Assembly: GCA_964600835.1 (NCBI GenBank)
Contig: CAZRLM010000001.1
Location: forward strand, 1-55,715
Length of the DNA stretch: 55,715 nt
Origin: an uncultured Oscillospiraceae bacterium
GTDB lineage: Bacteria; Bacillota; Clostridia; Christensenellales; Aristaeellaceae
Reading direction: 5' to 3'
The position numbers and the translations under genes were made by a program. The notes beneath the pieces are model-generated. The model ran no database searches, was not told the origin of the DNA, and worked only from the letters and a program-made list of their open reading frames with translations. The stretch's first letter is position 1; each line of letters opens with the position of its first letter. Below, one piece after another: positions 7,214-54,238 of the stretch.

Positions 7214-7223
7214 GAGGGGTATC

Positions 7224-8693
7224 ATGAAACGACTTGCGTGCCTTGCGCTGTGCGTACTGCTGCTTGTGACGGCAGTGTGCGCCTCGGCTGCGGAGTATAC
7301 GCTGCCGGAGAAGCTGCGCCGCCAGCTGGACTTTGGCAACGGCTTCCGGGGAACGGTGACCTTCTCTCTGGAAGGCGACGCGCCCTGGACGCAGAGCCTT
7401 CGCGCTATGGATGGGGCAGAGCTGCAGCTGCGGGCGATTCACTCCGACGGGCAGTTCCAGTACCAGCTGTACGGGCTGGAGGGGGAGACGCAGGTCGGTC
7501 TGACGCAGCTGTACGGAGATGCGGAGAACGCGTATTTCCGTAGCGAGCTGCTGCCGGGAAAGCTGCTGACCATGCCCATCGGCGAGTCGCTGACTTCGCT
7601 GGCGCTGGACAAGGCAGGCGCGAATCCCGCCTGGTATGACGCGGCGCTGCGCCTGATGTCCATATCCGACGCGGACTGGGCGGAAAGCTGGGAACCCGCG
7701 CTGCTGCCCTATCAGCAGCAGCTTGAAATGTGGCTGGACGCCTATGCCTCCGCGCCGGAAATGGTGCGCGACAACGAGGGCAACTCCGTCATGGTGGTTC
7801 GCTATGTCCTCCCGGCACAGGCGATCAAGGACGAGCTGGTCAGCCTGATTCGCCTGCTGATGGCGGACGAAACGCTGCTGACGCTCCTGCGCGGACAGAT
7901 GCGGGAAAACGCGCAGGCGGTCTATTTGAACCCTGACCTGATGTATTTTTATGAGGCCGCCATTGCCGCCCTGCCCTTTGAGGAGGATGTGATGGTGGAG
8001 CGCGAGCTGTCCACCATGGGCGAGCTGGTGTCTACGGAGCTTCGCCTGCCAGTCCTGACTGCGGACGGAAGCGCGCGAATGCTGAGCGTCGAGCAGGGCG
8101 ACGGCGGGCTCACCGCGACGCTGGAGGGCGACGAGCAGGACATGACGCTGATCGTGCGAGAATCCTCGCATATGGCGGAAAACATGACTGTGCGCGGCGT
8201 GCTGCGGGTGATCCCGGCGGATATGAGCGAGGATCATCCGGGGCAGTCGATCGGCTTTGTCGTCAAACGGCTTCATGCCACCAGCACGGACAGCAGCAGC
8301 ATCAATCACGACAGCACGAGCTTTACCCTCAGCCTTGCCCCTGATCTGACCGATTTGGCGGACAGCGAAGGTCTGTATGCGGATTTCCTGCCGGTGGAGA
8401 TGAAAGCGCTGGTGCATTTGTCCTCCGGCAGCGCGAACCGGAACCCGACGAACGTCGAGGTAGACGCGTCCTTTGCCTGCGGCGGCGCGACGCTGACCAT
8501 GAACGCTGCCTGCAAGACGACGACGCCCTGGCTGTTGTTCGACCTGCCGACGGAGGGCGCGGAAAGCGTCCTGACCGGCGACATGACCTCAAATCTGCTG
8601 ACGCTGCTGGGCAACCTGCGCGCTGCGCTGGCGAAGCAGACGGCGGATGATCTCCCGTTGCCGGTCGGCACGTCGACCGACCTGACGGAGTAA
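7224..8693 (+). CDS. Exported protein of unknown function (second member of the tandem trio)
   Basis: RBS AGGAGGGG lies 5 nt before the ATG. Signal peptide MKRLACLALCVLLLVTAVCASA-AE. Similar in size and composition to its neighbours. Confidence 0.6.
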   Translation: MKRLACLALCVLLLVTAVCASAAEYTLPEKLRRQLDFGNGFRGTVTFSLEGDAPWTQSLRAMDGAELQLRAIHSDGQFQYQLYGLEGETQVGLTQLYGDAENAYFRSELLPGKLLTMPIGESLTSLALDKAGANPAWYDAALRLMSISDADWAESWEPALLPYQQQLEMWLDAYASAPEMVRDNEGNSVMVVRYVLPAQAIKDELVSLIRLLMADETLLTLLRGQMRENAQAVYLNPDLMYFYEAAIAALPFEEDVMVERELSTMGELVSTELRLPVLTADGSARMLSVEQGDGGLTATLEGDEQDMTLIVRESSHMAENMTVRGVLRVIPADMSEDHPGQSIGFVVKRLHATSTDSSSINHDSTSFTLSLAPDLTDLADSEGLYADFLPVEMKALVHLSSGSANRNPTNVEVDASFACGGATLTMNAACKTTTPWLLFDLPTEGAESVLTGDMTSNLLTLLGNLRAALAKQTADDLPLPVGTSTDLTE

Positions 8694-8705
8694 AGGAGCA
8701 GCCGA

Positions 8706-10100
8706 ATGAAAAAAGCGATTGCGCTTTTGCTGGCGTTGCTGCTTGTGCCGGTGTCCGGACTGGCGGAGGCCCTGCAGTGGACAATCACGCTGGAAATTGC
8801 GCCGATGAACGAATTCCTTTCGACGATTCCGGTCGAATCGACGGACGAATCGGAAAAGCAGTTCCAAGCGATCCTCGACGCTGCCAACGCGCTGCTCAGC
8901 AGCATTTCCGTGCGCGTAACGTGCCAGCAGAACGCGGCGCGTCTGGAGCTTTTGATGCGCGACGGTACGCTGCTGGACGCCACGGCTGTGCTGGACGATA
9001 CGGGCTTTGCATTGTCCTCCAGCCTGATTCCCGGCGTAAAGCTGGCGTGGAAGCCGGATCAGGCGCAGGTTTGGCAAACGGCGGATGCGGTTGCCCGCGT
9101 GGACTGGCCGGCAATCAGCCAGCGGTTGGCCGATTGCTTTGACGAATGGCTTGCTGGCTGCGCGCCCGCGGTGACGGAAACCGGCAGCTTTGCGGGCGAC
9201 GCCTACGAGGGCGGCGTGAAGCGGACGCTCTACCGGTTCGACGACCGGGATCTCGCCATGCTGCTGTCCGCGGCGGGCGCGGCGCTGAACGCGGACGCGG
9301 CCGTGCAGAATATCATCCGTCTGCTGGGTGATTCGCTGACGACGGCGCTTGATGAGGCGCGGGAGTTTAACCGAACGGTCGGACTGAGAAACGAGTATCA
9401 CTATCAGCTTTCGCTTGTCGAGCGGGAGGACGGCGCGCTATGCGGCGTATCCCTGACAGTGCTTCGCGCTGGTGAGGAGCAGGTGTCGACCCTCTCAGTC
9501 GGGTTCACGGAAAACGATACGCGCCTGGTGTGGGGTTATGGCCTGGAGGACGTGAATTACTACGCCGATCTGACCGTTTCCGTTTTGGAAAATACGCAAT
9601 TGATCCGAAGAACCGAAATCAACAGCGCCGTTTATGAGGATCCGGCGTTTGCAGGCTATCAGGCGGCGAAGCAGGGCGAACCGGTTTGGTCGCTGCTGGC
9701 CCAGGAGGTTATCGAGACGGTTGCCGACCATGAAACCGTATCGGACATGACGATGACGGTCGAAGGACGCGATCTTCCACAATATCGCTATGAAATCCAT
9801 GAGGAAGTGGGTCAGTCGCCCTTCCAGGGTCAGTCGACGTCCACGATGTATATCGACAACGCGCGGTACCTGACGGAAACGATCACGGGCGAAATGGTTG
9901 AGGCCTTTGATCCCGCGCAGGACGGTTTGCGGGAAATCAGCCTGCTGCCGGAACTTAGCGCGCAGGATCAGGCCGATCTGGCGGAAATCCTGCAAGAGGG
10001 CCTGTCGACGCTGACGGTACAGCTGTTCAAGCTTGCTCCGCCGGAGGTGCTGACGGTGTTCATGATGCAGGGAATCGGTTTACCGACGCAGTCGGAATAA
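8706..10100 (+). CDS. Exported protein of unknown function (third member of the tandem trio)
   Basis: RBS AAAGGAG. Signal peptide MKKAIALLLALLLVPVSGLA-EA. 464 aa. Confidence 0.6.
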   Translation: MKKAIALLLALLLVPVSGLAEALQWTITLEIAPMNEFLSTIPVESTDESEKQFQAILDAANALLSSISVRVTCQQNAARLELLMRDGTLLDATAVLDDTGFALSSSLIPGVKLAWKPDQAQVWQTADAVARVDWPAISQRLADCFDEWLAGCAPAVTETGSFAGDAYEGGVKRTLYRFDDRDLAMLLSAAGAALNADAAVQNIIRLLGDSLTTALDEAREFNRTVGLRNEYHYQLSLVEREDGALCGVSLTVLRAGEEQVSTLSVGFTENDTRLVWGYGLEDVNYYADLTVSVLENTQLIRRTEINSAVYEDPAFAGYQAAKQGEPVWSLLAQEVIETVADHETVSDMTMTVEGRDLPQYRYEIHEEVGQSPFQGQSTSTMYIDNARYLTETITGEMVEAFDPAQDGLREISLLPELSAQDQADLAEILQEGLSTLTVQLFKLAPPEVLTVFMMQGIGLPTQSE

Positions 10101-19613: not shown

Positions 19614-21008
19614 ATGAAGGCAATGCTGGATCAAAATGTGGCCCGCGAGGTACTGGCCTGCGCAATACGCACCGGTGGCGACTTTGCGGAAATTTATGTG
19701 GAGGATCGCGTCGATAATGATTTGGCGATGCGCTCCGGCCGGATCGAAACGGTGAACAGCGGACGGCTGCATGGCGCGGGCGTACGCGTGTTCAGCGGGA
19801 CGAACGCGGTGTATGTGTATACGAACGATACGAGCCGCGCGGGACTGCTGGACTGTGCCGCGAAGGCAGCGGCTGCGGTGAAAGGCGGCAAGGGGACGAC
19901 GATCGCGCCTTTCCGGCCGGTGGATTATACTCGGCCCGAGGAAATTCTCTACCTGCCTACGTCGGTCAAGGCGGCTCGCAAGATCGAGAAGATGCGCGCG
20001 GCTGACGCGGCGGCGCGCGCCGTTTCCGATGAGATTGTCCAGGTGACGGTCGGCTATGCCGACTCCGTGCAGGACGTGTGCGTGTGCAACACCGAGGGCG
20101 TGTTTGCGACGGACCGCCGCGTGTGGTCGCGCCTGCGCTGCACCGCGGTTGCCAGCAATGGCAAGGAGAACCAGATTGGTACGGACTTCCCCGGCGCGGG
20201 CATGGGCTTTGAGCTTTTCGACAACCGGGTTGATCCAGCAAAGAGTGGCGTTCTGGCCGCGACGCAGGCTGTAACCATGCTGCACGCGCCGCTGTGCCCT
20301 GCGGGCATGATGCCTGTCGTGATCGACAACGCCTTTGGCGGTGTGATTTTCCACGAGGCCTGCGGACACAGCCTTGAGGCGACCAGTGTCGGCGTGGGGC
20401 TGAGCGAGTTCTGCGGCAAGCTGGGCCAGCGGGTGGCCGCGCCCTGCGTGACCGCGGTGGACGACGGCACCATCCTCAACGAGTGGGGCAGTCTCCATAT
20501 GGATGACGAGGGTCTGCCGACCACCAAGCTGATCCTGATTGACAAGGGCATTCTAACCAATTACATGGTGGATAAGCTGGGCAGTCGGCGGATGAATATG
20601 CCCACGACCGGTTCCAGCCGTCGCCAGAGCTACGCCTATGCGCCCACCTCCCGGATGCGCAATACCTACATCGCCGCCGGTGAGGACGACGAGGCGGAGA
20701 TGATCGCGACGATGGGCGACGGCCTGTACGCCAAGAAAATGGGAGGCGGCTCCGTCAATCCCGCGACGGGCGAGTTCAACTTTGCGGTCAGCGAGGGCTA
20801 TCTGGTGAAGGACGGCAAGATTGTCCACCCGGTGCGCGGCGCGTCGCTGATCGGTCGGGGCAGCGAGGTGCTGGCAAAGATCGACCGCGTCGGTCGGGAT
20901 ATGCAGATGGGGCAGGGAATGTGCGGCTCCGTCAGCGGCAGCATCCCCACCAACGTGGGCCAGCCGATGATCCGTGTCAGCAGCCTGACCGTCGGCGGCC
21001 AGGGCTGA
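19614..21008 (+). CDS. tldD: TldD-family metalloprotease
   Basis: FHEACGHSLE zinc motif and a conserved C-terminal GGS...G.F pattern. ATG 19623 is an alternative start. Confidence 0.9.
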   Translation: MKAMLDQNVAREVLACAIRTGGDFAEIYVEDRVDNDLAMRSGRIETVNSGRLHGAGVRVFSGTNAVYVYTNDTSRAGLLDCAAKAAAAVKGGKGTTIAPFRPVDYTRPEEILYLPTSVKAARKIEKMRAADAAARAVSDEIVQVTVGYADSVQDVCVCNTEGVFATDRRVWSRLRCTAVASNGKENQIGTDFPGAGMGFELFDNRVDPAKSGVLAATQAVTMLHAPLCPAGMMPVVIDNAFGGVIFHEACGHSLEATSVGVGLSEFCGKLGQRVAAPCVTAVDDGTILNEWGSLHMDDEGLPTTKLILIDKGILTNYMVDKLGSRRMNMPTTGSSRRQSYAYAPTSRMRNTYIAAGEDDEAEMIATMGDGLYAKKMGGGSVNPATGEFNFAVSEGYLVKDGKIVHPVRGASLIGRGSEVLAKIDRVGRDMQMGQGMCGSVSGSIPTNVGQPMIRVSSLTVGGQG

Positions 21009-21039
21009 GCAGGCGCAAGAGAGAAAGGAGAACAAAGCC

Positions 21040-22383
21040 ATGATGGAAATGAACGGCTTTATGAATCGCCTGCTGGACGCGGCGAAGGCCGCCGGGATTG
21101 AAACGGCGGAAATCTTTTATCAGATGGAGGACAGCTTCAACGCGGGCGCGATGAACGGGGAAATTCAGTCCTACAACGTATCCACCACCGGCGGGCTGAG
21201 CCTGCGCGGCACGGTGAACGGCAGGATGGGCTACGCGTCTACCGAGGCCTTCGATGACGCGGCCATTGAGCAGCTGATTGAGGGCGTAAAGGAATCGGCG
21301 GCGTTGGTGGAAGCGCCCGAGCAGGACGAAATCTTCGCCGGCGAGGCGGTTTATCCCACCTATGAGAGCGCGGAGAGCGACGTACTGTCCGTCCCGGCGG
21401 CGGAAAAGCTGAACGCCTGCCTGGATATGGAAAAGGCGGCGGAGGCGGTTGATTCCCGTGTGGGCAAGGTGCGCGCCAACCTGACGACCGCTTGCGAAAC
21501 GATGCGGATTAAGAACAGCTACGGGCTGGACTTGCAGCATACGGCCAATGTCTGCGCAGCCTATGTGTCCGCCATCGCCACCGAGGACGGCTCGACGGCG
21601 TCCGGCTCAAAGATGGTTGGCAAGACCGGCTTTGCCAAGGTGTGCGCGGAAAACATCGGACAGGTTGCCGCGGAGGAAGCGTTATCGAAGCTGCACGCGG
21701 AGCCGGTCGACTCCGGTCGCTATCGGGTGGTATTCAGCGGTTCCGCCATGCGCGGCCTGCTGGCGACCTTCTCGGGCATCTTCTCGGCGGAAAACGCCCA
21801 GCAGAGCCTGTCGCTGTTGGCCGGTAAGGAGGGCACGGTGATTGCCTCCGACGTGGTGACGTTGATGGACGATCCGTTGCTGCCGGACAGCTTTGCGTCC
21901 TGCCCCTTCGACTGCGAGGGTTCGGCGACGCGCACCAAGGCCGTGATCGAGGCCGGTACGCTGACGACCCTGCTGCACAGCCGCAAGACCGCGAAAAAGG
22001 CCGGTACGCAGACCACCGGCAACGCCAGCCGCTCGGGCTATGCGTCCGGGATCCATGTTGCGCCGACGAATTTCTTCTTCAAGGCCGGAGAAAAGACGCT
22101 GGACGAGCTGCTGGCGGAAATGGGCGACGGCCTGCTGATTATGGATATGAGCGGCCATCATGCGGGCGCGAACCAGGCCAGCGGCGACTTCTCGCTGCTC
22201 TCCAACGGCTTCCTGATCAAGGATGGCAAGCGCGTCCAGCCGGTGGAGCGCGTGACCGTCGCGGGCAACTTCTACGATCTGCTCAAGCAGATTCGGGCCT
22301 TCGGCAACGATCTGGAATTCGGCCTGAACGGCATGGGCAGCCCCTGCGCAGACGCGGGTGAGCTGCAGGTTTCCGGCAAGTAA
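21040..22383 (+). CDS. pmbA: PmbA/TldE-family protein (TldD partner)
   Basis: 447 aa, immediately downstream of tldD. Typical C-terminus GDFS...GFLI.DGK...V..VT.AGN. Confidence 0.85.
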   Translation: MMEMNGFMNRLLDAAKAAGIETAEIFYQMEDSFNAGAMNGEIQSYNVSTTGGLSLRGTVNGRMGYASTEAFDDAAIEQLIEGVKESAALVEAPEQDEIFAGEAVYPTYESAESDVLSVPAAEKLNACLDMEKAAEAVDSRVGKVRANLTTACETMRIKNSYGLDLQHTANVCAAYVSAIATEDGSTASGSKMVGKTGFAKVCAENIGQVAAEEALSKLHAEPVDSGRYRVVFSGSAMRGLLATFSGIFSAENAQQSLSLLAGKEGTVIASDVVTLMDDPLLPDSFASCPFDCEGSATRTKAVIEAGTLTTLLHSRKTAKKAGTQTTGNASRSGYASGIHVAPTNFFFKAGEKTLDELLAEMGDGLLIMDMSGHHAGANQASGDFSLLSNGFLIKDGKRVQPVERVTVAGNFYDLLKQIRAFGNDLEFGLNGMGSPCADAGELQVSGK

Positions 22384-22509: not shown

Positions 22510-22980
22510 ATGGATGAGCAGAGTTACCTGACGTACCTGATGCAGGCGGAGCGAACGCTGTATCATGTGGCGGCGACGCTTCTTCGGGATGAGCATGATC
22601 GCCAGGACGCGATGCAGGAAACCGCGCTGCGGGCTTGGCAGCATCGAGGCAAGCTGCGGGAGGAGCGGTATTTCACCACCTGGGCGGTGCGCATCATGAT
22701 CAACGTGTGCCGCACCATGCAACGCAGAAGCAGGCGAATGACGCCGACGGCGTGCGTGCCGGAACAGCCTGCGTTCCCTGAGGGGGACGTGGAGCTGCGC
22801 GTGCTGCTGGACGAGCTGCCGGAGCGTCTCCGTTTGCCGCTGGTGCTGTACTATCTGGAGGGGCTTTCGGTGGATGAGATCGCCCGGGCCACCGGCGCGC
22901 CGTCCGGCACGATCAAGTACCGGCTGCATCAGGCGCGGAAGGCGCTGCGCATCGAACTGGACGACGGAAAGGAGGGCTGA
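22510..22980 (+). CDS. ECF-subfamily RNA polymerase sigma-70 factor
   Basis: 156 aa. Region 2 (DAMQETALRAWQH) and a region 4 HTH (LSVDEIARATGAPSGTIKYRLHQARKAL). Confidence 0.85.
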   Translation: MDEQSYLTYLMQAERTLYHVAATLLRDEHDRQDAMQETALRAWQHRGKLREERYFTTWAVRIMINVCRTMQRRSRRMTPTACVPEQPAFPEGDVELRVLLDELPERLRLPLVLYYLEGLSVDEIARATGAPSGTIKYRLHQARKALRIELDDGKEG

Positions 22981-22983
22981 TCG

Positions 22984-24267
22984 ATGAAAGAAAGCGAACT
23001 GCGTCAACGATTGTGTGCAATGTATGGAACGGAGATTCCGCCCGCGGCGCATCAGGCATTCCTCACGGCAGCCTCCGCTGGAAAGGAGAAAAAGGTGAAG
23101 AAAAAGCTGCGTTTTGCGCCTGTGCTGGCGATTTTCCTGCTGCTGGCGCTGTGCTCGGCGGCTTACGCGCTGGTGAGCGGATACAGCGTGAAGGATTACG
23201 AGGCCGGCGGCAATCCGACGGAGGAATTTCTAACGCACAGGATTGACATCCACGAGCGATACGAGAACGACGTGATCGCGCTGACGGTGAACGACGCGGT
23301 GTTCGACGGCGAACGCATCGCGCTGGCGATGGACATTGCGCACAAGAACGTTCCGGTATACATCAGGCCGAAGCTGACGGCTGAGGCGGACGGCGTGAGC
23401 TATGCCGTCGACGTGGAGGGGTTCCGCGGCGGTGATTTCATGACAGGCTTCCTGTACCCCAATCCCTTTGACGCGCAGACGGAGGAAGACGGCTTCGGCT
23501 TTGACGGCGTGCTGTGGAATGAGGACGACGCGCCGCTGCCTGTCGGCGATGTGACCTGGACGCTGACAGTCAAGCTGTATCGTCCTCTGTTCGAGCTTGT
23601 GCAGGATGACACGGTGTTTGTCGGCGATGAAAACGAGTGGGAGGAATACGCTGAAAAAGCCTGCGCGGCCTATCGGGAAAAGAAGCTGCTGGTGCGGGCG
23701 GACGATAATCTGGTTGAGTATCAGTCCGCCATTCAACCGGCGACGGGGATTGACGAGGAAACCTACTGGAGCCTGGACTTCGCCGACGCGCTGGTGGAAG
23801 CGGGCGTGATGGAAAAGACGGACGAGCTTGTCTGCCGCTTTACCACCAGCGGCGATGGCAGCGCGCATAAGGAAAGCCTGACCGGTAAACGATTTGAATT
23901 TGACGAGGTCGCGGTGGTTATCGACAGCGTGAACGCAACCTTCCTGAATCAAGAGATTGTTATGCACTACGATTTCGGTCGGGAAATGACCATGGATGAG
24001 CTGACCGAAATTCGTGAAACGCTGCCGGATGCGTGGAACGTCTACGATCAGGACGGGCAGAGGATACAGCCGAACGCCTTTTCCAGCGGGGTTGACTGGG
24101 ACGTTGATGAAAAGACGGATTTAATGTCGAACCTTCGCTTGCAGTTTACCTTTAGCTTTTCGGGCGAGCGGGAAACGGAAACGCTGACCTTCGTCGGCTG
24201 CTATCGAAGCGAGGAAAATCAGCTTTGGGAAGCGCCGGAATACACCTTTACCCTGCCGCTGACATAA
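22984..24267 (+). CDS. Putative anti-sigma factor: single-pass membrane protein with a ~360-aa extracytoplasmic domain
   Basis: It starts 4 nt after the sigma gene. It has a short cytoplasmic N-terminus, a TM helix FAPVLAIFLLLALCSAAYALV, and a large acidic outside domain. Confidence 0.55.
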   Translation: MKESELRQRLCAMYGTEIPPAAHQAFLTAASAGKEKKVKKKLRFAPVLAIFLLLALCSAAYALVSGYSVKDYEAGGNPTEEFLTHRIDIHERYENDVIALTVNDAVFDGERIALAMDIAHKNVPVYIRPKLTAEADGVSYAVDVEGFRGGDFMTGFLYPNPFDAQTEEDGFGFDGVLWNEDDAPLPVGDVTWTLTVKLYRPLFELVQDDTVFVGDENEWEEYAEKACAAYREKKLLVRADDNLVEYQSAIQPATGIDEETYWSLDFADALVEAGVMEKTDELVCRFTTSGDGSAHKESLTGKRFEFDEVAVVIDSVNATFLNQEIVMHYDFGREMTMDELTEIRETLPDAWNVYDQDGQRIQPNAFSSGVDWDVDEKTDLMSNLRLQFTFSFSGERETETLTFVGCYRSEENQLWEAPEYTFTLPLT

Positions 24268-45984: not shown

Positions 45985-47523
45985 TTATTGCAGGTCAGAG
46001 GGGCTGGCGGGATCAACAGGAGGTTCATCCGTCGGAGGGGTCGTGGGCGGATCCGTCGGAGCCGTGGTGGGCGCATCGGTGGGCGCGTCGGTGGGCGCAG
46101 TGGTCGGAGCTTCTGTCGGAGGGGTCGTCGGCGCGGTTGTGGGCGCGTCCGTCGGCGGAATCGGCGTGGCCGTGCCGGGATTGACCGGCGCATTCGGGTC
46201 AAACAGCGCGATCAGCGTATTTTGATCCGCTTCGCCGGTTACCACCAGCAACGCAACGGACTGGAACTGCGCCACAGCGGCGACGGTGTTCGGGCCGTAC
46301 TTGCCATCCAGCTTGCCGGGATCATAGCCTAGGTCATGCAGCCGCGTCTGCATCAGCAGCACGTCGGTGCCCTTATCGCCATTTTTCAGGGGCGCATAGG
46401 GGTCGTAGACGGGCGCGTCCTTCGCGTAGAGCTTTTTAAGCATCGAAGCGGACGCATAGGAACGCTCGGTATAGTTGATTGCGCACTGGAACAGGTGCAC
46501 GGCCAGCAGCGTATCGTTGCCGAATACGCCGTCCACCTTGCCCACCGGGTAGCCCAGCTCGGCAAGGCGCTTCTGCATCTTGCGCACAGAGGAACCGCGC
46601 GCGCCCTTGCTGATCCGCCCGTCGTCCGAGCTGGAAGAGCTCGAGGAGCTGGAGGAGGGCTTGGGCGTTCTGGTGGGCGCGGGCGTGTTAGTCGGCCGCT
46701 GCGTGGCGGTGGGAGCCGTTGTGACCGCGGGCGCGGGCGAGGTCGTTTCAGCCGTCTTGGCGGTCGCAAAGGTCATGTTATCCAGCGGGGAGACGCTTTC
46801 AATCAGGTAATGGCCGGAAAGATCCTGCGTGTAGCGGTAGACCTGTCCGTTATGGCACACGGCAGCCGCGGTGTTCACGGAGGCCGCGGCGAGCGTGTGG
46901 TACTCGTTGTCCGCCAGGGTCACGACGGTCACGGTGTGATCGCTGCCCAGCATCGTCACCGCGTCCTGCGCAGCAGCCATGAAGATCGGGCTGTCAATGC
47001 CATTGCCAAGGCTGATGGGCGCGGCGGTCAAGCCGGTTTCACTGGTCAGCGCGACGCTCATGAGCGTCGTTTGCCCGTCCGTACCCTGTTCGATATAGAA
47101 CAGCTGCGTGCCGTTGGTGCACGCCATCAGCGCGTTTGTGGAGAGCGGCGCAGTCGAGCCGTCCGCCCGCCGCAGAGAAAGAGCGGCGTCCTCCAGCGTA
47201 TAGGGCAGTACGCCGGCAGCGCTTTCGAGATCGCTTTCGCTGGGCGCGTTGCTGACAATGCTTGTGCTGGTGCCGTCCAGGCGGATCGCGTAAAGCGCGC
47301 CGCCGCTGGCCAGGCAGTAGAGCTGACTGTCATCCATGCCTATCAGGTCGATGATGGGGGAGCGAAGCACCTTCGCGGCGCCCTCCGCGTCCTCCAAATA
47401 GAGGTAATTGCTGTCACCCAGATAGGCTGTGTAGCTGCCATTGGAAACGATTGGCGATGCCATTGCGGTAACCGCGAAGCACAGCGCGGCCAGCAGGCAA
47501 AGCAAAGGAATAACCCGTTTCAT
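45985..47523 (-). CDS. Secreted cell-wall protein: beta-propeller-like N-domain, Ser/Pro/Thr linker, two PG_binding_1 domains, PT-repeat tail
   Basis: Signal peptide MKRVIPLLCLLAALCFAVTAMA. Two repeats of the form G..V..(M/L)Q.RL..LGY..G..DG.(F/Y)G..T..AV..FQ. The C-terminus is PTDAPTTAPTTPPTEAPTTAPTDAPTDAPTTAPTDPPTTPPTD. Confidence 0.75.
   Translation of the reverse strand: MKRVIPLLCLLAALCFAVTAMASPIVSNGSYTAYLGDSNYLYLEDAEGAAKVLRSPIIDLIGMDDSQLYCLASGGALYAIRLDGTSTSIVSNAPSESDLESAAGVLPYTLEDAALSLRRADGSTAPLSTNALMACTNGTQLFYIEQGTDGQTTLMSVALTSETGLTAAPISLGNGIDSPIFMAAAQDAVTMLGSDHTVTVVTLADNEYHTLAAASVNTAAAVCHNGQVYRYTQDLSGHYLIESVSPLDNMTFATAKTAETTSPAPAVTTAPTATQRPTNTPAPTRTPKPSSSSSSSSSSDDGRISKGARGSSVRKMQKRLAELGYPVGKVDGVFGNDTLLAVHLFQCAINYTERSYASASMLKKLYAKDAPVYDPYAPLKNGDKGTDVLLMQTRLHDLGYDPGKLDGKYGPNTVAAVAQFQSVALLVVTGEADQNTLIALFDPNAPVNPGTATPIPPTDAPTTAPTTPPTEAPTTAPTDAPTDAPTTAPTDPPTTPPTDEPPVDPASPSDLQ
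46030..46170. repeat. Degenerate 12-nt tandem repeat encoding (A/P)PT(D/T/E) tetrapeptides
   Basis: GTGGGCGCATCG / GTGGGCGCGTCG / GTGGGCGCAGTG / GTCGGAGCTTCT / GTCGGAGGGGTC ... are visible on the plus strand, inside the 3' end of the minus-strand CDS. Confidence 0.8.
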
Positions 47524-47822: not shown

Positions 47823-48988
47823 ATGAGGAACGGTTTGCGGCGCGCGCTTTGTCTGGCCATGCTGACGGTGGCGATGTTGCTCGTGGGCGCAGCCCATGCG
47901 GACGGCCCAATGGCCTATGGCGTGACGTACAGAAGCGACACCGTCAACCTGCGTCGGCAGCCGACTCAGTATTCCGATCGGTTGGGAAGCTACGCGCGGG
48001 GCAGCTGGATGACGATCAACGGCGAGAATGGCAACTGGTACTATGTCACCGCGCCGGATGGTAAGACGGGCTATATGAGCAAGAACTACGTCGAGGTGAT
48101 ACAGGACAACTATGCTACCGTCGGCTTGGTGGCAAACTCCAAGCCAACCGCATTCCTGAACCTGCGGGAGAGGCCGAGCTATTCGGCCAGGGTGCTGGGC
48201 ATCTATTATAACGGCGTTCCTTTTACGCCGCTGAGCTATTCCGGCGGCTGGTACAAGGTGCGGTTGAACGGTACGGAGGGGTATTTTCGGGAGGAGTATG
48301 TTACGCAGCGCTATATGGCCTTTCGGAGGAGGTAGCGACGGTTGTTACGCCCAACAGGGGCGGGGTGAACCTGCGCACAGGTCCGGGCATGGGGTATCCG
48401 TCCATCAAGCAATATCCGGGTGGAACCTATGTGATGGTGCTCCAAAAGGGCGTGGATTGGTGGCGCATATCGGTGGACGGATGCATCGGCTACATGAGCA
48501 CCCGTTTTTTGCGGGAGGGCGTGCTCGATCCCTCCCACAGCGTCGGCGACGGCGGACAGGACGCGACCGTAAACGGGTATGCCATTGTGACGAACCTGCG
48601 TCAAACGCAGCTGCTGAACCTGCGGGAGTCGCCCACGACCACCAGCCGTGTTCTGGGGCAATACGCAAACGGAACGCGGCTGACGGTTCTTTTCCAGGGA
48701 TTGCAGTGGTGCAAGGTGATGAACGCCTCAAACGCGGTCGGCTATATGATGACCGATTACCTGACGCTCTATCAGCTGCCGGACGTGCCGCGCATGAAGG
48801 TCAATCACCCGCAAAAAACCTTTGTCAACCTTCGCTCGACTCCTTCCATGACAGCCAGCCGGGTGTTGGCGCGGGTGCCCCACGGCGCGAGCGTCATCGT
48901 TCTTTCGCCCGAGGAGGGCTGGATCAAGGTGCGGTATAACGGTCAGACGGGATACATGGTTTCCTACTTTCTGCAAGAGGAAAAATAA
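47823..48988 (+). pseudogene. Five-repeat bacterial SH3 (SH3b) exported protein interrupted by a frameshift near 48321-48335
   Basis: ORF 47823-48335 carries a signal peptide and 2 SH3b repeats. ORF 48365-48988 carries 3 SH3b repeats with no signal peptide or credible RBS. The second frame is open upstream and reads SEEVATVVTPNRGGVNLRTGPG, continuing the repeat pattern. Confidence 0.65.
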
Positions 48989-48990
48989 AC

Positions 48991-49035
48991 AAAACGCGGC
49001 ACGCTGGAAAACAAATCCGACGCGCCGCGTTTTTT
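48991..49035. terminator. Bidirectional rho-independent terminator
   Basis: AAAACGCGGCACG...CGCGCCGCGTTTTTT lies between convergent genes. Confidence 0.7.
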
Positions 49036-49046
49036 GCAATCCCTTC

Positions 49047-49529
49047 TTACTGCCCGTAGGTGGTTCGCGTGGAGAAAGGAATCCCCCAGAGATAGTAGGT
49101 GACGTTCAGCTCACGGACGGCGTGCATTCCGATGCTGGTCAGAATGGTGGCGCTGATATCGCCGGTTGAGCGGGCGGGAAGCGCGCGGGCGGTTTCGTCG
49201 TCGATTTGAAGCACGTCGCCGTCCATGGGCGTGACTTGCACCTCCACCATGTCCGCCGTCAGAAAGCTGTTGTTTTTCAACCGAACGGTATAGGTATAGA
49301 ACTGGTAGTTTTCCGCGCTGCTCAGGGGCGCGGCCGTATAGGCTGTGCCGATGACCCGCCCCTCCGCCACCTGCGCTTGCAAACTGGCGAACAAATCGGG
49401 CTGCGTGGAGGCTTCCACGGCGATTACGCCAACTCCGTCGACCGTTACATTGGCAGTCATGTACAGATAGCCCACGCCAACGACGGAGGCAAGAAGCAGA
49501 ACGACCATCAAAATAGCAACATATTTCAC
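49047..49529 (-). CDS. Small N-terminally membrane-anchored protein of unknown function (third gene of the MotAB-like operon)
   Basis: GTG start 8 nt after AGGAGA. TM helix VAILMVVLLLASVVGVGYLY followed by a ~130-aa beta-rich extracytoplasmic domain. Confidence 0.6.
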   Translation of the reverse strand: MKYVAILMVVLLLASVVGVGYLYMTANVTVDGVGVIAVEASTQPDLFASLQAQVAEGRVIGTAYTAAPLSSAENYQFYTYTVRLKNNSFLTADMVEVQVTPMDGDVLQIDDETARALPARSTGDISATILTSIGMHAVRELNVTYYLWGIPFSTRTTYGQ

Positions 49530-49575
49530 GGCTTAAATCTCCTACTCAACGGATCAGTAAAGACTTGTTTATCTC

Positions 49576-50616
49576 TCAGCCTCCGGAGGAAAGAATACGG
49601 TTCAACTCGTCGATCATCTCGCTGTCCTTGAGATTGAACTTGAACTCAACGCGGCGGGATGCATCCAGATTGACGGTGCCATCCGCGTTGTATACGGGAT
49701 TGGACCAGCTCTTACCGGTGGCGGTGAGGATGGAACGCAGCTTGGCCTGCTGCTCAGCGTTCAGAGAGGGCATCTCCAGGCAGTACTTCGCTACGGAGAG
49801 CGCCCGCGCCTGACTCAGCTCCAGGTTGTTCATATAGTTGCCAACCGTGTCAGTATGCCCTTCAATGATGATTTCTCCCAGGTAGTCCGCATATTGCGGC
49901 TGAAGGAGCACCTCCAGATAGACGGGAATGAACCGGTTCAGCAACGCCTGACCGTCCTCCTGAATGGCGGAGGAGTTGGTCTTGAAAAGCACCGCGCTGT
50001 CCAGCGTGATCGCGCCGGTGTTCTTGTCAACGTATGCTTTCAGGTTGGCGTTTGTCAGCGCGACGGAAAGATCCTGAATGATGCGCGTTCGTACGCCGAC
50101 CATTGCGTCGATCTTTGCGGTCTGCGCCGTGAGCGCTTCCTGCTGGGCCAGCAGCGCCGCGGTGGCTGCATCCAGCTCGTCCTGCTTGGTGGCAAGCAGC
50201 GCGCTTTGGGCGTCCAGCTCAGCCTGCTTTGCGTCCAGCGCAGCCTGCAAGGAAGCCAGAAGCGACTCCCGATCGGCCAGCGTCAGTTTTGCCGCGTCCA
50301 GCTCGGCCTGCTGCTCATCCAGGTTCGTTTGCAGCAGCGCCAGCGCGGCGCTTTGCTCATCCAGGGTAGTTTGCTGCTGCGAAAGCTGCAACGCATACTC
50401 GTCTACCTTGGTCTGCTGCTGATTAAGTAGCGCGCTCTGCGCCTCTAACTCAGCGGTTTTTGTTTCCAGCATGGTAAAGTATTGATAGAGGCTGATGGAA
50501 AGAATCAGCACAAACACCAGCAGCAGCGCGGCCATCATATCCGAATAGCTGATCCAGCTTGCGCCGCTGTTGGTCGACTTGCCTGCGCGTTGATTGTGGA
50601 TACGCTGTCTTGCCAT
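49576..50616 (-). CDS. MotB/OmpA-family protein with an extended coiled-coil stalk
   Basis: WISYSDMMAALLLVFVLIL is a MotB-type TM helix with the conserved Asp. Residues ~55-166 form 14-residue repeats. The C-terminal OmpA-like domain is IIIEGHTDTVGNYMNNLELSQARALSV. The RBS GAAGGAGGAG lies within the end of the upstream gene. Confidence 0.8.
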   Translation of the reverse strand: MARQRIHNQRAGKSTNSGASWISYSDMMAALLLVFVLILSISLYQYFTMLETKTAELEAQSALLNQQQTKVDEYALQLSQQQTTLDEQSAALALLQTNLDEQQAELDAAKLTLADRESLLASLQAALDAKQAELDAQSALLATKQDELDAATAALLAQQEALTAQTAKIDAMVGVRTRIIQDLSVALTNANLKAYVDKNTGAITLDSAVLFKTNSSAIQEDGQALLNRFIPVYLEVLLQPQYADYLGEIIIEGHTDTVGNYMNNLELSQARALSVAKYCLEMPSLNAEQQAKLRSILTATGKSWSNPVYNADGTVNLDASRRVEFKFNLKDSEMIDELNRILSSGG

Positions 50617-50622
50617 GCGGGA

Positions 50623-52167
50623 TTACTCCTCCTTCACAGCATCCAGCGTGTCTGCCGCGCGCTGCACGCTGTCGGAAATGGCGGTCAGCATCCGCTGAAG
50701 CTCGCTGACCTGCTTGGCGGTGACGGCCTCGCTGTCGTGGGCGTTGAGCGCATCAATCCGTTCGGAAAGCGTAGAAATCAGGCTGTGCATACTCTCGTCG
50801 AACAGGCCGAGGGAGCGGGACAGCCCTTCCACAACGTTCTGCACGAAGGTATCGTAGCTTTGGGACAACGCTTCGCCAGCGGTTTGTATGGCCTGGCTGG
50901 CGCTGCTCAGGCCGACGGCGCTCTCGCTGCCGACGCGCCCCAGCGCGGTCATTGTTTCCTGACTCTTCTCCTGGAATTGTTGCAGAGCGCGGGACAGGTC
51001 GTCCTGATAGGCCTTGAGGCCACGCAGGGCAGCATTTTGCTGATCGGCGGCATTGTGAAGTTTGGACAGCAGCTCGCTGGTGGCCTGCTCAAAGCGCTCA
51101 TCCCGGCGGCGCGCGTCGCCCAGCTCCTTCACATACTGCTCGAAGCGGGCGATCACGTCGTTGCTCACGCCGCTCAGGCGGGCGGCGTCGTTCAAAACGG
51201 CGGAAGCGGTCTGCATGGACTTTTCCACCTGCGCCGCTTGAGCAGATTGATGCTGGTTCAGCTCGGTCATTGTCTGCCCAAGCGTCAAAAACTGGCCGGA
51301 GAGCGTCTCGTTCATGCGGGAAATGAAATTGTTCACAATCTGATTCACGCCGTCGATTTGCGCGCGGGTCGCGCCAATCAGGAAATTGTCCATCGCGCGG
51401 GCGACAGGCTGCATCGCGCGGGTGACGGACAGCTCGACGCTTCCGGCGATCTGTCCGGGCAGCGACTCGGTGACGGTGCTCAGCAGATGATTGCAGTCCT
51501 GATTCTGGCAAATGAGCTGCACGTCGTTATCCAGCGGGCGCTGCATGGCCAGCTGCGTGAAGGAGGAAACGAAGTCGTCAATGGCCCGATAACTCGAGCC
51601 TTGCGCAATGCGGTTCAACATATTAAAGCACAGCGAGCAGGAAATGCCTGCGATCGAAGTGCCAAAGGCGAACTGCATTCCGGTCAGCAGCTTCGGAATA
51701 CCGGCGATGATGTTGGCGGCGTCAGAGAAATCCAGACCGCCCAGGCCGCGCATCATGCCCATGAAGGTGCCCAGAATGCCCAGCGAGGTGAGCAGGCCGG
51801 GGATCAGATCCGCCAGCGTGGCGTTTCCGGGGCCATGGGTCACGGTATCGTCATTGATATAATCTTCGACATTGCAGGGAAGCCCGCGCCGGTCAAGCTG
51901 CTCGGCGTTTTGCAGGAATCGGAGCCAGGAGCCGCGCAGACGCTTGCCCATAAAGCGGGATTCCTGCCAGACGGGCTTTTCGCCCTGCTGACGTCCCGCG
52001 TCCGCCTGCAAGCGGGAAACGGCGCGCCGCAGCGCATGGGTGGTGTTCCATAGCGGCAGCAAACACTTGATGACGCCGATCAGCGTCACTACGCCGATAG
52101 CGATATACACCAGCGCGTCCGCCAGATTGTCGGGCAACTGCGCGGTCATTGAGCTAAAATCAGGCAT
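50623..52167 (-). CDS. MotA/TolQ/ExbB-family proton-channel protein with a ~280-aa C-terminal coiled-coil tail
   Basis: ATG 52167 lies 8 nt after AAGGAGG. TM1 is VYIAIGVVTLIGVIKCLL. The channel helices are LIPGLLTSLGILGTFMGMM and FAFGTSIAGISCSLCFNML. A long Q/A/S/L/E-rich helical tail follows. The 698-aa track ORF is an artefactual extension. Confidence 0.8.
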   Translation of the reverse strand: MPDFSSMTAQLPDNLADALVYIAIGVVTLIGVIKCLLPLWNTTHALRRAVSRLQADAGRQQGEKPVWQESRFMGKRLRGSWLRFLQNAEQLDRRGLPCNVEDYINDDTVTHGPGNATLADLIPGLLTSLGILGTFMGMMRGLGGLDFSDAANIIAGIPKLLTGMQFAFGTSIAGISCSLCFNMLNRIAQGSSYRAIDDFVSSFTQLAMQRPLDNDVQLICQNQDCNHLLSTVTESLPGQIAGSVELSVTRAMQPVARAMDNFLIGATRAQIDGVNQIVNNFISRMNETLSGQFLTLGQTMTELNQHQSAQAAQVEKSMQTASAVLNDAARLSGVSNDVIARFEQYVKELGDARRRDERFEQATSELLSKLHNAADQQNAALRGLKAYQDDLSRALQQFQEKSQETMTALGRVGSESAVGLSSASQAIQTAGEALSQSYDTFVQNVVEGLSRSLGLFDESMHSLISTLSERIDALNAHDSEAVTAKQVSELQRMLTAISDSVQRAADTLDAVKEE

Positions 52168-52236: not shown

Positions 52237-52265
52237 ATTGTACATGATTTTTATCCGCTTGTAAA
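52237..52265 (-). promoter_or_regulatory. Near-consensus sigma-A promoter of the MotAB-like operon
   Basis: Minus strand reads TTTACA (52260-52265), 17 nt, then TACAAT (52237-52242) preceded by TG. Confidence 0.6.
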
Positions 52266-52356
52266 TGAACAGCTTGTAAACAAACGGATTTTGCCTTTCG
52301 TTCAGTGTTTCGGAGGACGCGGCGCGCATATGCTGTGATGGAAGCGAGGGATGAAT

Positions 52357-52596
52357 ATGCGCAACGGGTGGAAGCCTGGGCAGGTGCAGACGCGCTGCTA
52401 TCGGCAGGGAAACGGCGCGCTGATTGCGTTGGGCGCGGCTTTGGTGGCGCTTGGGCTGCTGCTGCTCTTTCTGTGCATTCCCGGATGGGCATGGGCAGCG
52501 CTGGCGGGCAGCCTGCTGATCGGCGCCGGCTACCTGCTCATCCGCCTTGGGCGCAGTGCGGGGAAGCAAGGCGGCAAGAGCTGCCGCCGGCGGTGA
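52357..52596 (+). CDS. Small two-TM membrane protein (hypothetical)
   Basis: GAGGG lies 6 nt before ATG 52357 (ATG 52351 is also in frame). There are two clear hydrophobic helices, ALIALGAALVALGLLLLFLCI and AWAALAGSLLIGAGYLLI, and a basic tail. Confidence 0.4.
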   Translation: MRNGWKPGQVQTRCYRQGNGALIALGAALVALGLLLLFLCIPGWAWAALAGSLLIGAGYLLIRLGRSAGKQGGKSCRRR

Positions 52597-52772: not shown

Positions 52773-54170
52773 TCAGGGAATCAGCAGGATCTGGCCGGGG
52801 AAAATCAACTGGTCGCGATAGAGGCCGTTTCGCTCAAGCAGCGCGTCCAGCGTAACGGAGAAACGCGCGGCGATCTTCGTTAGCGTATCGCCGCGATTGA
52901 TCACATAACCGCCGCGAAAACGCTGCGATGTGCCCGCGCCCGAGGGCTTCAAGTGAAGCATCTGTCCGCGGTAAAGGGGTGCGTCTGCAGATAGACCGTT
53001 TGCCTGTGCCAGCACGGTCAGCGAAACGCCGTACTGGGCGGACAGGCTGTGCAGCGTTTGCCCGGCCTGAACGACGAGGGCGCTTTCCAGGAGCGCGCTG
53101 GGAACGCCACGGCCTGCGCCTTCGGGCAGTTTCACGATCTGACCGACCGGAACAGAGGTGGAAGAGAAGCCATTCAGCAGCGCCAGCGACTGAACCGATA
53201 CACCGCAGCGGCGGGCAAGCGTGGACAGGCTTTCCCTTGTTTGCAGGATGTGCAGCGCGTATGCGCCTCCGCCTATTTGACGGTCGCCGGGATAACGAAC
53301 GATCTGACCGGCCTGCGCCACGCCGCCGGGAAACTCGTTTTGATCCAGCAACGCGGTCTGCGTGGTTCCGAGCCGCTCGGCCAGGGCGACAACGGATTCC
53401 GAAGTTTGCACCTGATAGGCGAGCGTAGAACCCACAGGAGCGGGCGTTGGCGCAGGCGTCGGCGAGGGAGCGGTAGACTGGTAGATCTCCCGCGTAAACC
53501 GATCCAGATCGACATGGCCGCGAATCCCGTCAATTTCTCCCTGATCGGAGTACTGAAAGCCGACCCACGAGGTCCACTTGCCATTTGCTTCCGGAAGCGA
53601 CACGCCGTAATTGGCTACCCAGATCGGATAGCGCGCCAGCGCCGCGCCGAAGCGCGCCCGCGCTGCCCAGGCGTCCGTGTACAGCATGGCACGCAGCCCG
53701 GTTCTGCTTTCGACGCGCTCCAGGAAGGCGAGCGCAACGGCGGTCAGTTCCTCTTCGGATAGGGAAACCGCGTCGCCAACGTCCAGCGCGAGCAGGCAGT
53801 CGGCTTCCTTGCCAGCGATGGTTTGGGCGAAAAAATCCGCCTGCCGTTGCGCGCCTGCGATGGTGTCGGCCGTCATGAAGTGGTAGAATCCAACCGCTAC
53901 GCCGGATGATTTTGCGCCTGCATAGTTGCGCTCGAAGGTGCTGTCCACGACCGTTTCACCCTCCGAGGCGCGGAGCATCGCGACCTCAACGCCGCTGCTC
54001 CGCACGGCGCTCCAGTCAATCTCTCCCTGCCACGCGCTCACGTCGATGCCGGACAGGGTAGGCGTTGAGGCGGGCGGAAAGGTTTCCGCGAAGGCGATGG
54101 CGGGCGTCAAGGCGAGCAGCAGGCAGCAGCACAGAACTGCGCCTGTGCGATGGAAGACTTTCACAAGCAT
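52773..54170 (-). CDS. GH25 muramidase (lysozyme) with four C-terminal LysM domains
   Basis: A signal peptide, then GIDVSAWQGEIDW...FYHF (GH25), an APSPTPAPTPAP linker and four LysM repeats such as YVINRGDTLTKIAARFSVTLDALLERNGL. The start ATG 54170 is preferred; GTG 54179 is too close to the RBS. Confidence 0.85.
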   Translation of the reverse strand: MLVKVFHRTGAVLCCCLLLALTPAIAFAETFPPASTPTLSGIDVSAWQGEIDWSAVRSSGVEVAMLRASEGETVVDSTFERNYAGAKSSGVAVGFYHFMTADTIAGAQRQADFFAQTIAGKEADCLLALDVGDAVSLSEEELTAVALAFLERVESRTGLRAMLYTDAWAARARFGAALARYPIWVANYGVSLPEANGKWTSWVGFQYSDQGEIDGIRGHVDLDRFTREIYQSTAPSPTPAPTPAPVGSTLAYQVQTSESVVALAERLGTTQTALLDQNEFPGGVAQAGQIVRYPGDRQIGGGAYALHILQTRESLSTLARRCGVSVQSLALLNGFSSTSVPVGQIVKLPEGAGRGVPSALLESALVVQAGQTLHSLSAQYGVSLTVLAQANGLSADAPLYRGQMLHLKPSGAGTSQRFRGGYVINRGDTLTKIAARFSVTLDALLERNGLYRDQLIFPGQILLIP

Positions 54171-54238
54171 CAAAAGCACGCTCCTTTCCCTTCAGCTTAT
54201 GCAGCATGGGCACGAAGGAGCGCGGGGCAGGATGAAAT

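Follow-up and report, generated by a model that had tools for sequence, protein, structure and literature searches.

The 55,715-nucleotide (nt) stretch of DNA analyzed here (contig CAZRLM010000001.1 of an uncultured Oscillospiraceae bacterium, a gut Clostridia genome of the Christensenellales/Aristaeellaceae type; hereafter, the window) carries on its minus strand three consecutive open reading frames (ORFs), g1, g2 and g3, which encode a ZorA-like membrane subunit, a ZorB-like subunit that anchors to the cell wall, and a small membrane-anchored protein. A sequence-only reading, made from the letters of the window and its translated ORFs, had placed three minus-strand genes here behind a near-consensus promoter, and both the ORFs and the promoter are present at these positions (Table 1). 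The genes follow one another closely, with gaps of 6 nt between g1 and g2 and of 46 nt between g2 and g3. The g1 frame stays open upstream of the ATG at position 52167 as far as 52719; we take this ATG as the start codon because it is preceded by AAGGAGG, lies downstream of the promoter, and coincides with the point at which the N-termini of the homologues match. A longer g1 product of 568 or 698 amino acids (aa) was ruled out, since it would begin upstream of the conserved promoter. The same promoter architecture was found upstream of g1 in 39-43 species, with the consensus caTTTACAatcc.g..aaAATC.TGTAcAATa, and it is conserved there at the nucleotide level although the encoded proteins are only 55-70% identical; the conserved stretch, AAATC(A/G)TGTA(C/A)AATA, falls within window positions 52237-52290 and has equivalents in loci L001-L060. 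In the related promoters a second TGTTTACA is often seen about 14 nt upstream of the -35 element, and this extra repeat could be a regulator site. A sporulation-specific promoter was also considered and rejected, as by eye the motifs of sigma-E, -K, -F and -G were unmatched. Downstream of g3 lies an intrinsic terminator that doubles as the terminator of a convergent gene for a protein with SH3b domains. Given the promoter, the short gaps and the terminator, we regard g1-g2-g3 as a self-contained three-gene operon.

Table 1. Features of the g1-g2-g3 operon and its surroundings in the window, and equivalents of residues tested in E. coli ZorA and ZorB (EcZorA, EcZorB). AF2, AlphaFold2; pLDDT, predicted local distance difference test; Ig, immunoglobulin.
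Feature	Position	Strand	Description
Two-helix membrane protein	52351..52596	plus	81 aa, motif LLLFLCIPGWAWAALAG, basic tail; divergent from the operon
Promoter	52237..52265	minus	sigma-A-type, TTTACA-17 nt-TACAAT; 10/12 consensus matches
g1	50623-52167	minus	514 aa ORF, ZorA-like
g1 motor part, aa 1-205	51553..52167	minus	ZorA by profiles, structures and fold
g1 cytoplasmic tail, aa 206-514 (~310 aa)	50626..51552	minus	all-helical, heptad-like stretches
g2	49576-50616	minus	346 aa ORF, ZorB-like
g2 transmembrane helix with channel Asp26	50479..50562	minus	D26 in SYSDMMAALLLVF
g2 coiled-coil stalk, aa 47-176 (~130 aa)	50089..50478	minus	insertion relative to canonical ZorB
g2 OmpA-like peptidoglycan-binding domain, aa 177-346	49579..50088	minus	Pfam OmpA 8e-13
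g3	49047-49529	minus	160 aa ORF, GTG start
g3 membrane anchor, aa 1-25	49455..49529	minus	hydropathy 2.7 over aa 4-22; AF2 helix 2-25
g3 Ig-like beta-sandwich, aa 26-160	49050..49454	minus	one helix, aa 44-56; AF2 pLDDT 85.9
Intrinsic terminator 3' of g3	48981..49031	minus	hairpin dG -30.4 kcal/mol, z -4.4, then UUUUGUUUAUUUUU (U-tract)
EcZorA P126 = g1 P113			one substitution among 47 related genomes
EcZorA P136, I144, T147, S184 = g1 P123, I131, T134, S171			identical in all aligned (47 related genomes)
EcZorA E86, E89 (calcium site) = g1 R83, L85/gap			not conserved (hhalign)
EcZorB N152, L155, R159 = g2 N264, L267, R271			invariant in 47 related genomes
EcZorB Y151 = g2 N263			variable

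Our comparisons show that g1 and g2 belong to the known ZorA and ZorB families, and that g3 is a previously undescribed partner. The sequence-only reading had recognized a ZorAB-like pair whose A subunit is tailed and whose B subunit binds the wall, and on this point profile, sequence-to-structure and fold comparisons agree. Among the PADLOC models, g1 matched ZorA1 best (3e-24), and one ZorA model covers residues 2-510. A sequence search of the PDB returned ZorA chains first (8qyy, 8vvn, 8vvi and 8qyd, E 6e-11 to 4e-8), with ExbB reaching an E-value of only 0.27, and an hhalign comparison of a 40-homologue g1 profile with Klebsiella ZorA1, a protein of 729 aa equal in length to that of E. coli, gave a probability of 96.6% over 221 columns. 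Both hydropathy and AF2 topology give g1 three membrane helices; the model is all-helical and of moderate confidence (pLDDT 64.8, ~80 in the membrane part), and in a Foldseek search its best six matches were ZorA structures (E-values of 6e-6 to 2e-3 and target TM-scores of 0.49-0.68), whereas TolQ, ExbB and PomA came next at an E-value of ~0.02 and score about 1000-fold weaker. As regards family thresholds, g1 scored below the cut-offs of Pfam MotA_ExbB (20.2 vs. 22.9) and of the NCBIfam ZorA models (best 77.5 vs. 100), and precomputed matches to the recent Pfam family ZorA-like_t1 (PF28082) exist for g1 (at locus L007) and for nearly all of the 120 homologues listed, which NCBI records name only as "hypothetical" or "MotA/TolQ/ExbB family."

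The motor part of g1 consists of a first transmembrane helix (aa 19-37), a cytoplasmic domain (aa 46-115) and a second and third transmembrane helix (aa 116-205), and it contains the channel motifs that the sequence-only reading had quoted. We mapped the EcZorA and EcZorB residues tested by Hu et al. (PMC11946911) onto g1 and g2 through ungapped phmmer alignments; the equivalents are listed in Table 1, and g1 T134 and S171 are the residues contacting the channel Asp. The cytoplasmic tail that follows is rich in A, L, S and Q, contains no proline past residue 254, and is modeled by AF2 as helices over residues 214-513; if extended, it would measure ~43-46 nm at the E. coli ratio. Islands of conservation are found in it at aa 203-228, 250-290, 340-360 and 434-460, the distal part being more variable. 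The possibility that the tail is a separate gene joined by mistake can be set aside, as the ORF is continuous and, across 47 genomes, g1 usually has 493-519 aa; a few genomes gave apparent lengths of 307-431 aa, in at least one case because a contig end truncates the gene.

PADLOC assigned g2 to ZorB1 (PDLC00609, 9.6e-72), and in the PDB sequence search ZorB (8qyd_F) was best at 1.2e-15, with MotB at 2e-5; the best NCBIfam ZorB1 score was 79.4 vs. a cut-off of 400. The proton-carrying Asp, the long coiled coil and the OmpA-like domain that had been read from the sequence are all there. The membrane helix aligns with EcZorB residues 19-45, so that g2 D26 corresponds to EcZorB D26, and this residue is invariant in 48 sequences; the wall-binding motif E252-G-x-T-D256 is invariant as well. 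Since the motor and the wall-anchor residues are conserved, the pair appears to be under purifying selection as a working ion-driven unit. Pfam MotB_plug also recognizes g2 (25.3 bits vs. a cut-off of 24), and this match, together with the Pfam OmpA match and weak MotB/MotS matches, is what would be expected if g1 and g2 were the flagellar stator (MotAB) of the host. We consider that explanation hardly credible, because g1 has the three-helix ZorA/ExbB layout with a tail rather than the four helices and rotor-contact domain of MotA, because MotA_ExbB stays below its cut-off and PomA lies far below ZorA in the fold search, and because there are no flagellar genes in the window or in the 57 loci that we compared.

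Canonical ZorB proteins have their wall-binding domain directly after the membrane helix, whereas in g2 a coiled coil of ~110-130 aa lies between the two. The PADLOC ZorB1 model matches g2 in two stretches and skips about residues 45-153; the PADLOC ZorB models span 215-293 positions and EcZorB has 246 aa, and hence the stalk is absent from canonical ZorB. It is A/L/Q-rich and heptad-like, contains no proline, and is the least conserved region of g2 (0.44): among species, the insertion ranges from 100 to 315 aa and the full length of g2 from 318 to 533 aa. If it forms a two-stranded coiled coil, the stalk would measure ~19 nm in the window, and 15-47 nm across species. In Gram-positive envelopes viewed by cryo-electron microscopy, a low-density inner wall zone roughly 16-22 nm thick is seen. 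The stalk would, therefore, be about long enough to bring the wall-binding domain to the peptidoglycan.

The third gene had been described from the sequence as an anchored, beta-rich protein with no recognizable motif. AF2 likewise models an N-terminal helix followed by a beta-sandwich, and no family match was obtained in Pfam, NCBIfam, PADLOC or PHROGs. Foldseek searches of the PDB and of viral models found generic Ig-like folds only (TM-scores ~0.4), namely the gamma-adaptin ear, glycosidase accessory domains and DUF4352-like lipoproteins; these matches are generic and hence give no functional lead. In the anchor, K2, G20 and Y23 are invariant among close homologues and G18 is nearly so, which fits helix-helix packing within the membrane. 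Because K2 precedes the helix and acidic residues follow it, we place the g3 domain outside the cell (N-in, C-out), and a protein that faces outward cannot be the cytoplasmic partner of the g1 tail. An exhaustive profile search with g3 collected 303 clusters at 50% identity, almost all of ~160 aa, in which N86 and G149 are invariant family-wide and a few other positions nearly so; a profile search using distant members returned 4 proteins only.

To judge how widely the operon occurs, we scanned one genome per species with an alignment of close g3 relatives only, and found g3 in 48 genomes, a number that is a lower bound for the species concerned. All are uncultured gut or rumen Clostridia, labeled as Christensenellales, Aristaeellaceae, "Faecalibacterium sp. 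CAG:74" or Candidatus Egerieenecus. Wherever the locus includes enough DNA in these 48 species genomes, the genes stand in the order g1-g2-g3, at 47-74% identity. Moreover, in four of five metagenomic lineages with distant g3 relatives (20-26% identical) the gene still follows ZorA-like and OmpA-type genes, and the neighbors in these four lineages are rpsB-tsf, gltX, pgk-tpi or a sortase locus. The three genes that the sequence-only reading had treated as one unit are thus conserved as a unit in relatives. When the flanking ORFs were clustered, only g1, g2 and g3 proved universal; the next commonest neighbors were asd (25 loci), dapA/dapB (21) and a secreted multi-SH3b protein (19), and the commonest arrangement reads dapB-dapA-asd, a small two-helix gene, g1-g2-g3 and the convergent SH3b protein. 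Across 21 loci, the identity of the system correlates with that of asd plus dapA (Mantel r 0.64, 0 of 2000 permutations). Mean pairwise identity is 68% for g1, 61% for g2 and 65% for g3, and the same allele with the same neighbors was recovered in 21 of the 23 contigs of the host species, which come from different samples.

The absence of a ZorC/D/E/F/G-like neighbor, also remarked on in the sequence-only reading, extends to related loci: no such gene lies in the window operon, and none is conserved beside the unit across the 57 loci. PADLOC gave no match on the ten largest window ORFs, Pfam assigned the other larger window genes to sugar metabolism, wall enzymes and housekeeping without any Zor effector, and no helicase or nuclease is common to the flanks of the clustered loci. 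Signs of mobility were looked for as well. A search of 2.9 million viral contigs gave no g3 relative, and none of the plasmid matches to g1 and g2 is close: they are only 21-40% identical, belong to Proteobacteria and Bacteroidota, and adjoin ZorC/D, HNH ZorE or FtsK-like genes. In the literature we found no paper on a ZorA-like three-gene system in Clostridia, and papers on Aristaeellaceae yielded no phenotype data.

Given the vertical inheritance, the lack of any sign of mobility and the lack of an operon-encoded effector, we consider the operon most likely to encode a resident motor rather than a classical Zorya island. The explanation that we favor, at about even chances, is that of a proton motor or sensor which is tethered to the wall, inherited vertically and adapted to the single-membrane envelope. 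The operon would be constitutively promoted, and its product would be a ZorAB-type 5:2 rotary motor with g3 as a dedicated third subunit. Two g2 chains would form the stator inside a ring of five g1 chains, the stalk would carry the OmpA-like domains across the inner wall zone to the peptidoglycan, and proton flow through D26 would turn the g1 ring and so spin the tail in the cytoplasm. The g3 helix may dock on the outer side of the g1 ring, in the way that TonB and TolA bind to ExbB and TolQ, and its Ig domain would then sit at the base of the stalk, a place held in E. coli by the wall-binding domain of ZorB, as a regulatory or coupling subunit. Such a resident, envelope-linked machine might report on the status of the wall or act on it. 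The sequence-only reading had left the choice between a Zorya variant and an envelope machine; the comparative data lean toward an ion-driven envelope machine over a classical defense island.

The competing explanation to be taken most seriously, which we nevertheless regard as rather unlikely, would make the operon a new type of Zorya anti-phage system, poor in effectors and suited to single-membrane bacteria, in which the stalk reaches the wall and either g3 replaces ZorC/D/E/F/G or the tail recruits a distant effector; g3 might then sense or block phage at the membrane surface. Zorya is reported to be under-represented in monoderms, and wall architecture was suggested as a possible reason (Hu et al., PMC11946911), so that the stalk would answer the very problem proposed for these bacteria. 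This explanation would also accommodate the homology to ZorA and ZorB with retention of residues needed for Zorya motor function, the presence of a tail, which is essential in Zorya (PMC11946911), and the precedent of ZorF and ZorG in type III, which are likewise non-nuclease proteins (PMC8565338). However, the outward-facing g3 cannot be a DNA-acting partner recruited by the tail, and no effector lies nearby in the 57 loci. The stable housekeeping synteny, the co-divergence and the conserved sigma-A promoter, along with the lack of relatives in viral contigs and of close relatives on plasmids, weigh against it as well, and the NCBIfam Zorya models score far below their cut-offs.

Several observations weigh against the resident wall-tethered motor that we favor. 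Phage defense is the only experimentally known role of ZorA/ZorB-type motors (PMC11946911, PMC11890865), and in type III Zorya the partners ZorF and ZorG have no assigned function and no recognizable nuclease (PMC8565338). The calcium-site glutamates E86 and E89, which are required in E. coli, are not retained in g1. A conserved tail with islands implies a cytoplasmic partner, and none was found nearby. The system diverges faster than asd and dapA (61-68% vs. 77-87% mean pairwise identity), and the suggestion that the operon is core-like, chromosomal and vertically inherited draws on synteny and co-divergence, not on a census. We infer, moreover, the stoichiometry, the docking of g3 and the geometry of the stalk. 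Finally, in one lineage (P0270, abundant in metagenomes) nrdG and galT flank a g3-like gene that is 30% identical (L064 376-861; L065 7001-7423), with no ZorAB-like gene within 7 kb, and hence g3-type proteins can exist apart from the motor. On L064 the GC content falls from 0.55 to ~0.40 after 2 kb, and this contig may be chimeric. The P0270 gene is also the observation that would suit a g3 that is a mere passenger, with the ZorAB-like pair alone as the functional unit. We hold this to be very improbable, given that order and spacing are strictly kept in 48 species and four distant lineages, down to 20-26% identity, that g3 lies inside the promoter-terminator unit, and that it is about as conserved as the motor genes (65% vs. 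68% for g1 and 61% for g2).

The neighborhood of the operon bears on a further alternative, namely that the machine is linked to sporulation or germination and works, for example, on spore cortex or engulfment peptidoglycan. The frequent neighbors asd-dapA-dapB belong to the diaminopimelate and dipicolinate pathway, one distant locus has genes for GerM-type (Germane) proteins close to the unit, and genes for a wall hydrolase and wall-binding proteins lie nearby in the window. We nonetheless judge a sporulation role improbable: the conserved promoter belongs to the vegetative sigma-A class, sporulation-sigma motifs being unmatched by eye, and those neighbors stand on opposite strands and change between lineages. 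The sequence-only reading had, in addition, listed a spoVM-like gene among the neighbors, and this did not hold, for the gene is not SpoVM; its product, of 81 aa, has two membrane helices and matched no family of Pfam, NCBIfam, PADLOC or PHROGs, which leaves the hint of sporulation unsupported. Homologues of this two-helix protein, of ~65 aa, are encoded upstream of g1, in an unchanged place and direction, in ~21 distinct genomes, and the gene stands beside g1 in both the asd and the GH25 contexts. Hence, it may be a fourth associated gene, one not proven to be part of the system. We also considered whether it forms a holin-endolysin pair with the gene for a GH25-LysM protein next to it, and rejected this, as the two genes are convergent and the small gene stays beside g1 where GH25 is missing.

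Other genes of the window and of related loci are recorded here as separate observations. Two SH3b ORFs (47823-48335 and 48365-48988, plus strand) together align to one secreted multi-SH3b protein of ~390 aa in relatives; they align in two different frames, which indicates that the gene is split by a frameshift in the host species, and the split recurs in independent samples (L007 and L008). Wall-related genes bracket the operon, each in its own transcription unit: on one side (45985-47523, minus strand) a secreted protein of 512 aa that combines two PG_binding_1 domains with Pro/Thr-rich linkers, on the other (52773-54179, minus strand) a GH25 muramidase with four LysM repeats. Farther away, on the plus strand, are three consecutive genes with signal-peptide-like N-termini (5798-10100; 471, 489 and 464 aa), which matched nothing in Pfam and show no detectable similarity among themselves, and a TldD/PmbA metallopeptidase pair followed by an ECF-type sigma factor and a 427-aa protein without Pfam match, possibly its anti-sigma partner (19614-22383 and 22510-24267). 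In one distant lineage (L057 345-6762 and L058), genes for a Cna_B surface protein and a sortase-like protein precede the module on the same strand, and the gene of a secreted SH3b protein begins 27 nt downstream of it; the ZorB-like gene is split there into two ORFs (145 and 142 aa) in L057 and is intact (303 aa) in L058. On plasmid pE2-28 of Prevotella sp. E2-28 (L062; NZ_CP091789.1, 17748-30209), a ZorB-like OmpA gene, 37% identical to the C-terminal domain of g2, belongs to a co-directional run, where it comes after genes for hypothetical proteins of 566 and 569 aa; a 3'-5' exonuclease and two FtsK-like DNA translocases are also encoded in the run, which may represent an unclassified ZorAB-translocase arrangement.

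Zorya is a widespread bacterial immune system, and studies of its motor core have so far been confined to double-membrane bacteria. The operon described here shows one way in which a ZorAB motor can be fitted to a thick wall, in that a stalk, whose length varies, separates the channel from the wall-binding domain, and it pairs the motor with a small protein on its outer face instead of with DNA-acting effectors. As the unit is present in dozens of abundant gut and rumen species, it offers a test case for functions of ZorAB beyond defense, and it raises the question of what a spinning cytoplasmic tail does when no effector is encoded beside the motor. Possibly this type of motor has a job other than classical phage defense. 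Going further, and somewhat short of even chances, we propose tentatively that ZorAB-type motors serve not only phage defense but also, in Christensenellales, a resident three-subunit wall machine, and that Zorya and this machine are two branches of one motor lineage.

Comparison with known systems places the operon closest to Zorya. The OmpA-like domain of g2 matches the NCBIfam PRK09039-type models (NF006542/3/4; E 4.6e-21) at their C-terminal end, and in these models, 343-627 aa in length, the wall-binding domain is likewise preceded by a long region; the match falls far short of the curated cut-off, and the family is uncharacterized. With MotAB, MotPS and PomAB, which also occur in Gram-positives, the system would share the 5:2 ion motor and shares the OmpA-like peptidoglycan binding of the B subunit, but the architecture of its A subunit differs, the rotor-contact domain is missing, and the matches are much weaker. 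ExbB-ExbD-TonB and TolQ-TolR-TolA offer a different parallel: a ring of five A subunits, a stator of two B subunits with a channel Asp, and an anchored third protein that faces outward, whose helix sits on the A ring in the solved TonB-ExbBD and TolQRA structures. In contrast to these systems, g1 and g2 are much closer to ZorAB (E 0.27 for ExbB vs. 6e-11 for ZorA), g2 carries an OmpA domain, g1 has a long tail, and there is no outer membrane to act on; furthermore, g3 is compact and Ig-like, without the proline-rich spacer or the C-terminal domain of TonB or TolA. Like type III Zorya, the operon combines a ZorAB core with a partner that is no recognizable nuclease, but g3 matches neither ZorF nor ZorG, and it is one small anchored protein as compared with two soluble ones. 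Because the defining partner genes are absent, the operon is not a Zorya system of types I-III. It differs from type I in that ZorC and ZorD are absent beside the unit, the g1 tail has ~310 aa vs. ~500 aa in E. coli, a coiled coil of ~130 aa is inserted in g2, an outward-facing membrane protein (g3) is added, the calcium-site E86/E89 are replaced and the disulfide cysteines are absent, and in that it is chromosomal, syntenic and vertically inherited in monoderm Clostridia and scores below the NCBIfam cut-offs. Nevertheless, type I Zorya (E. coli NCTC 9026, PDB 8QYD; Shewanella, 8VVN) is the best match of g1 and g2 in sequence, profile and fold, and the two systems have in common a three-helix A subunit with a long helical tail, the gene order A then B, the equivalents of the ion path with Asp26, and an OmpA-like domain with counterparts of N152, L155 and R159.

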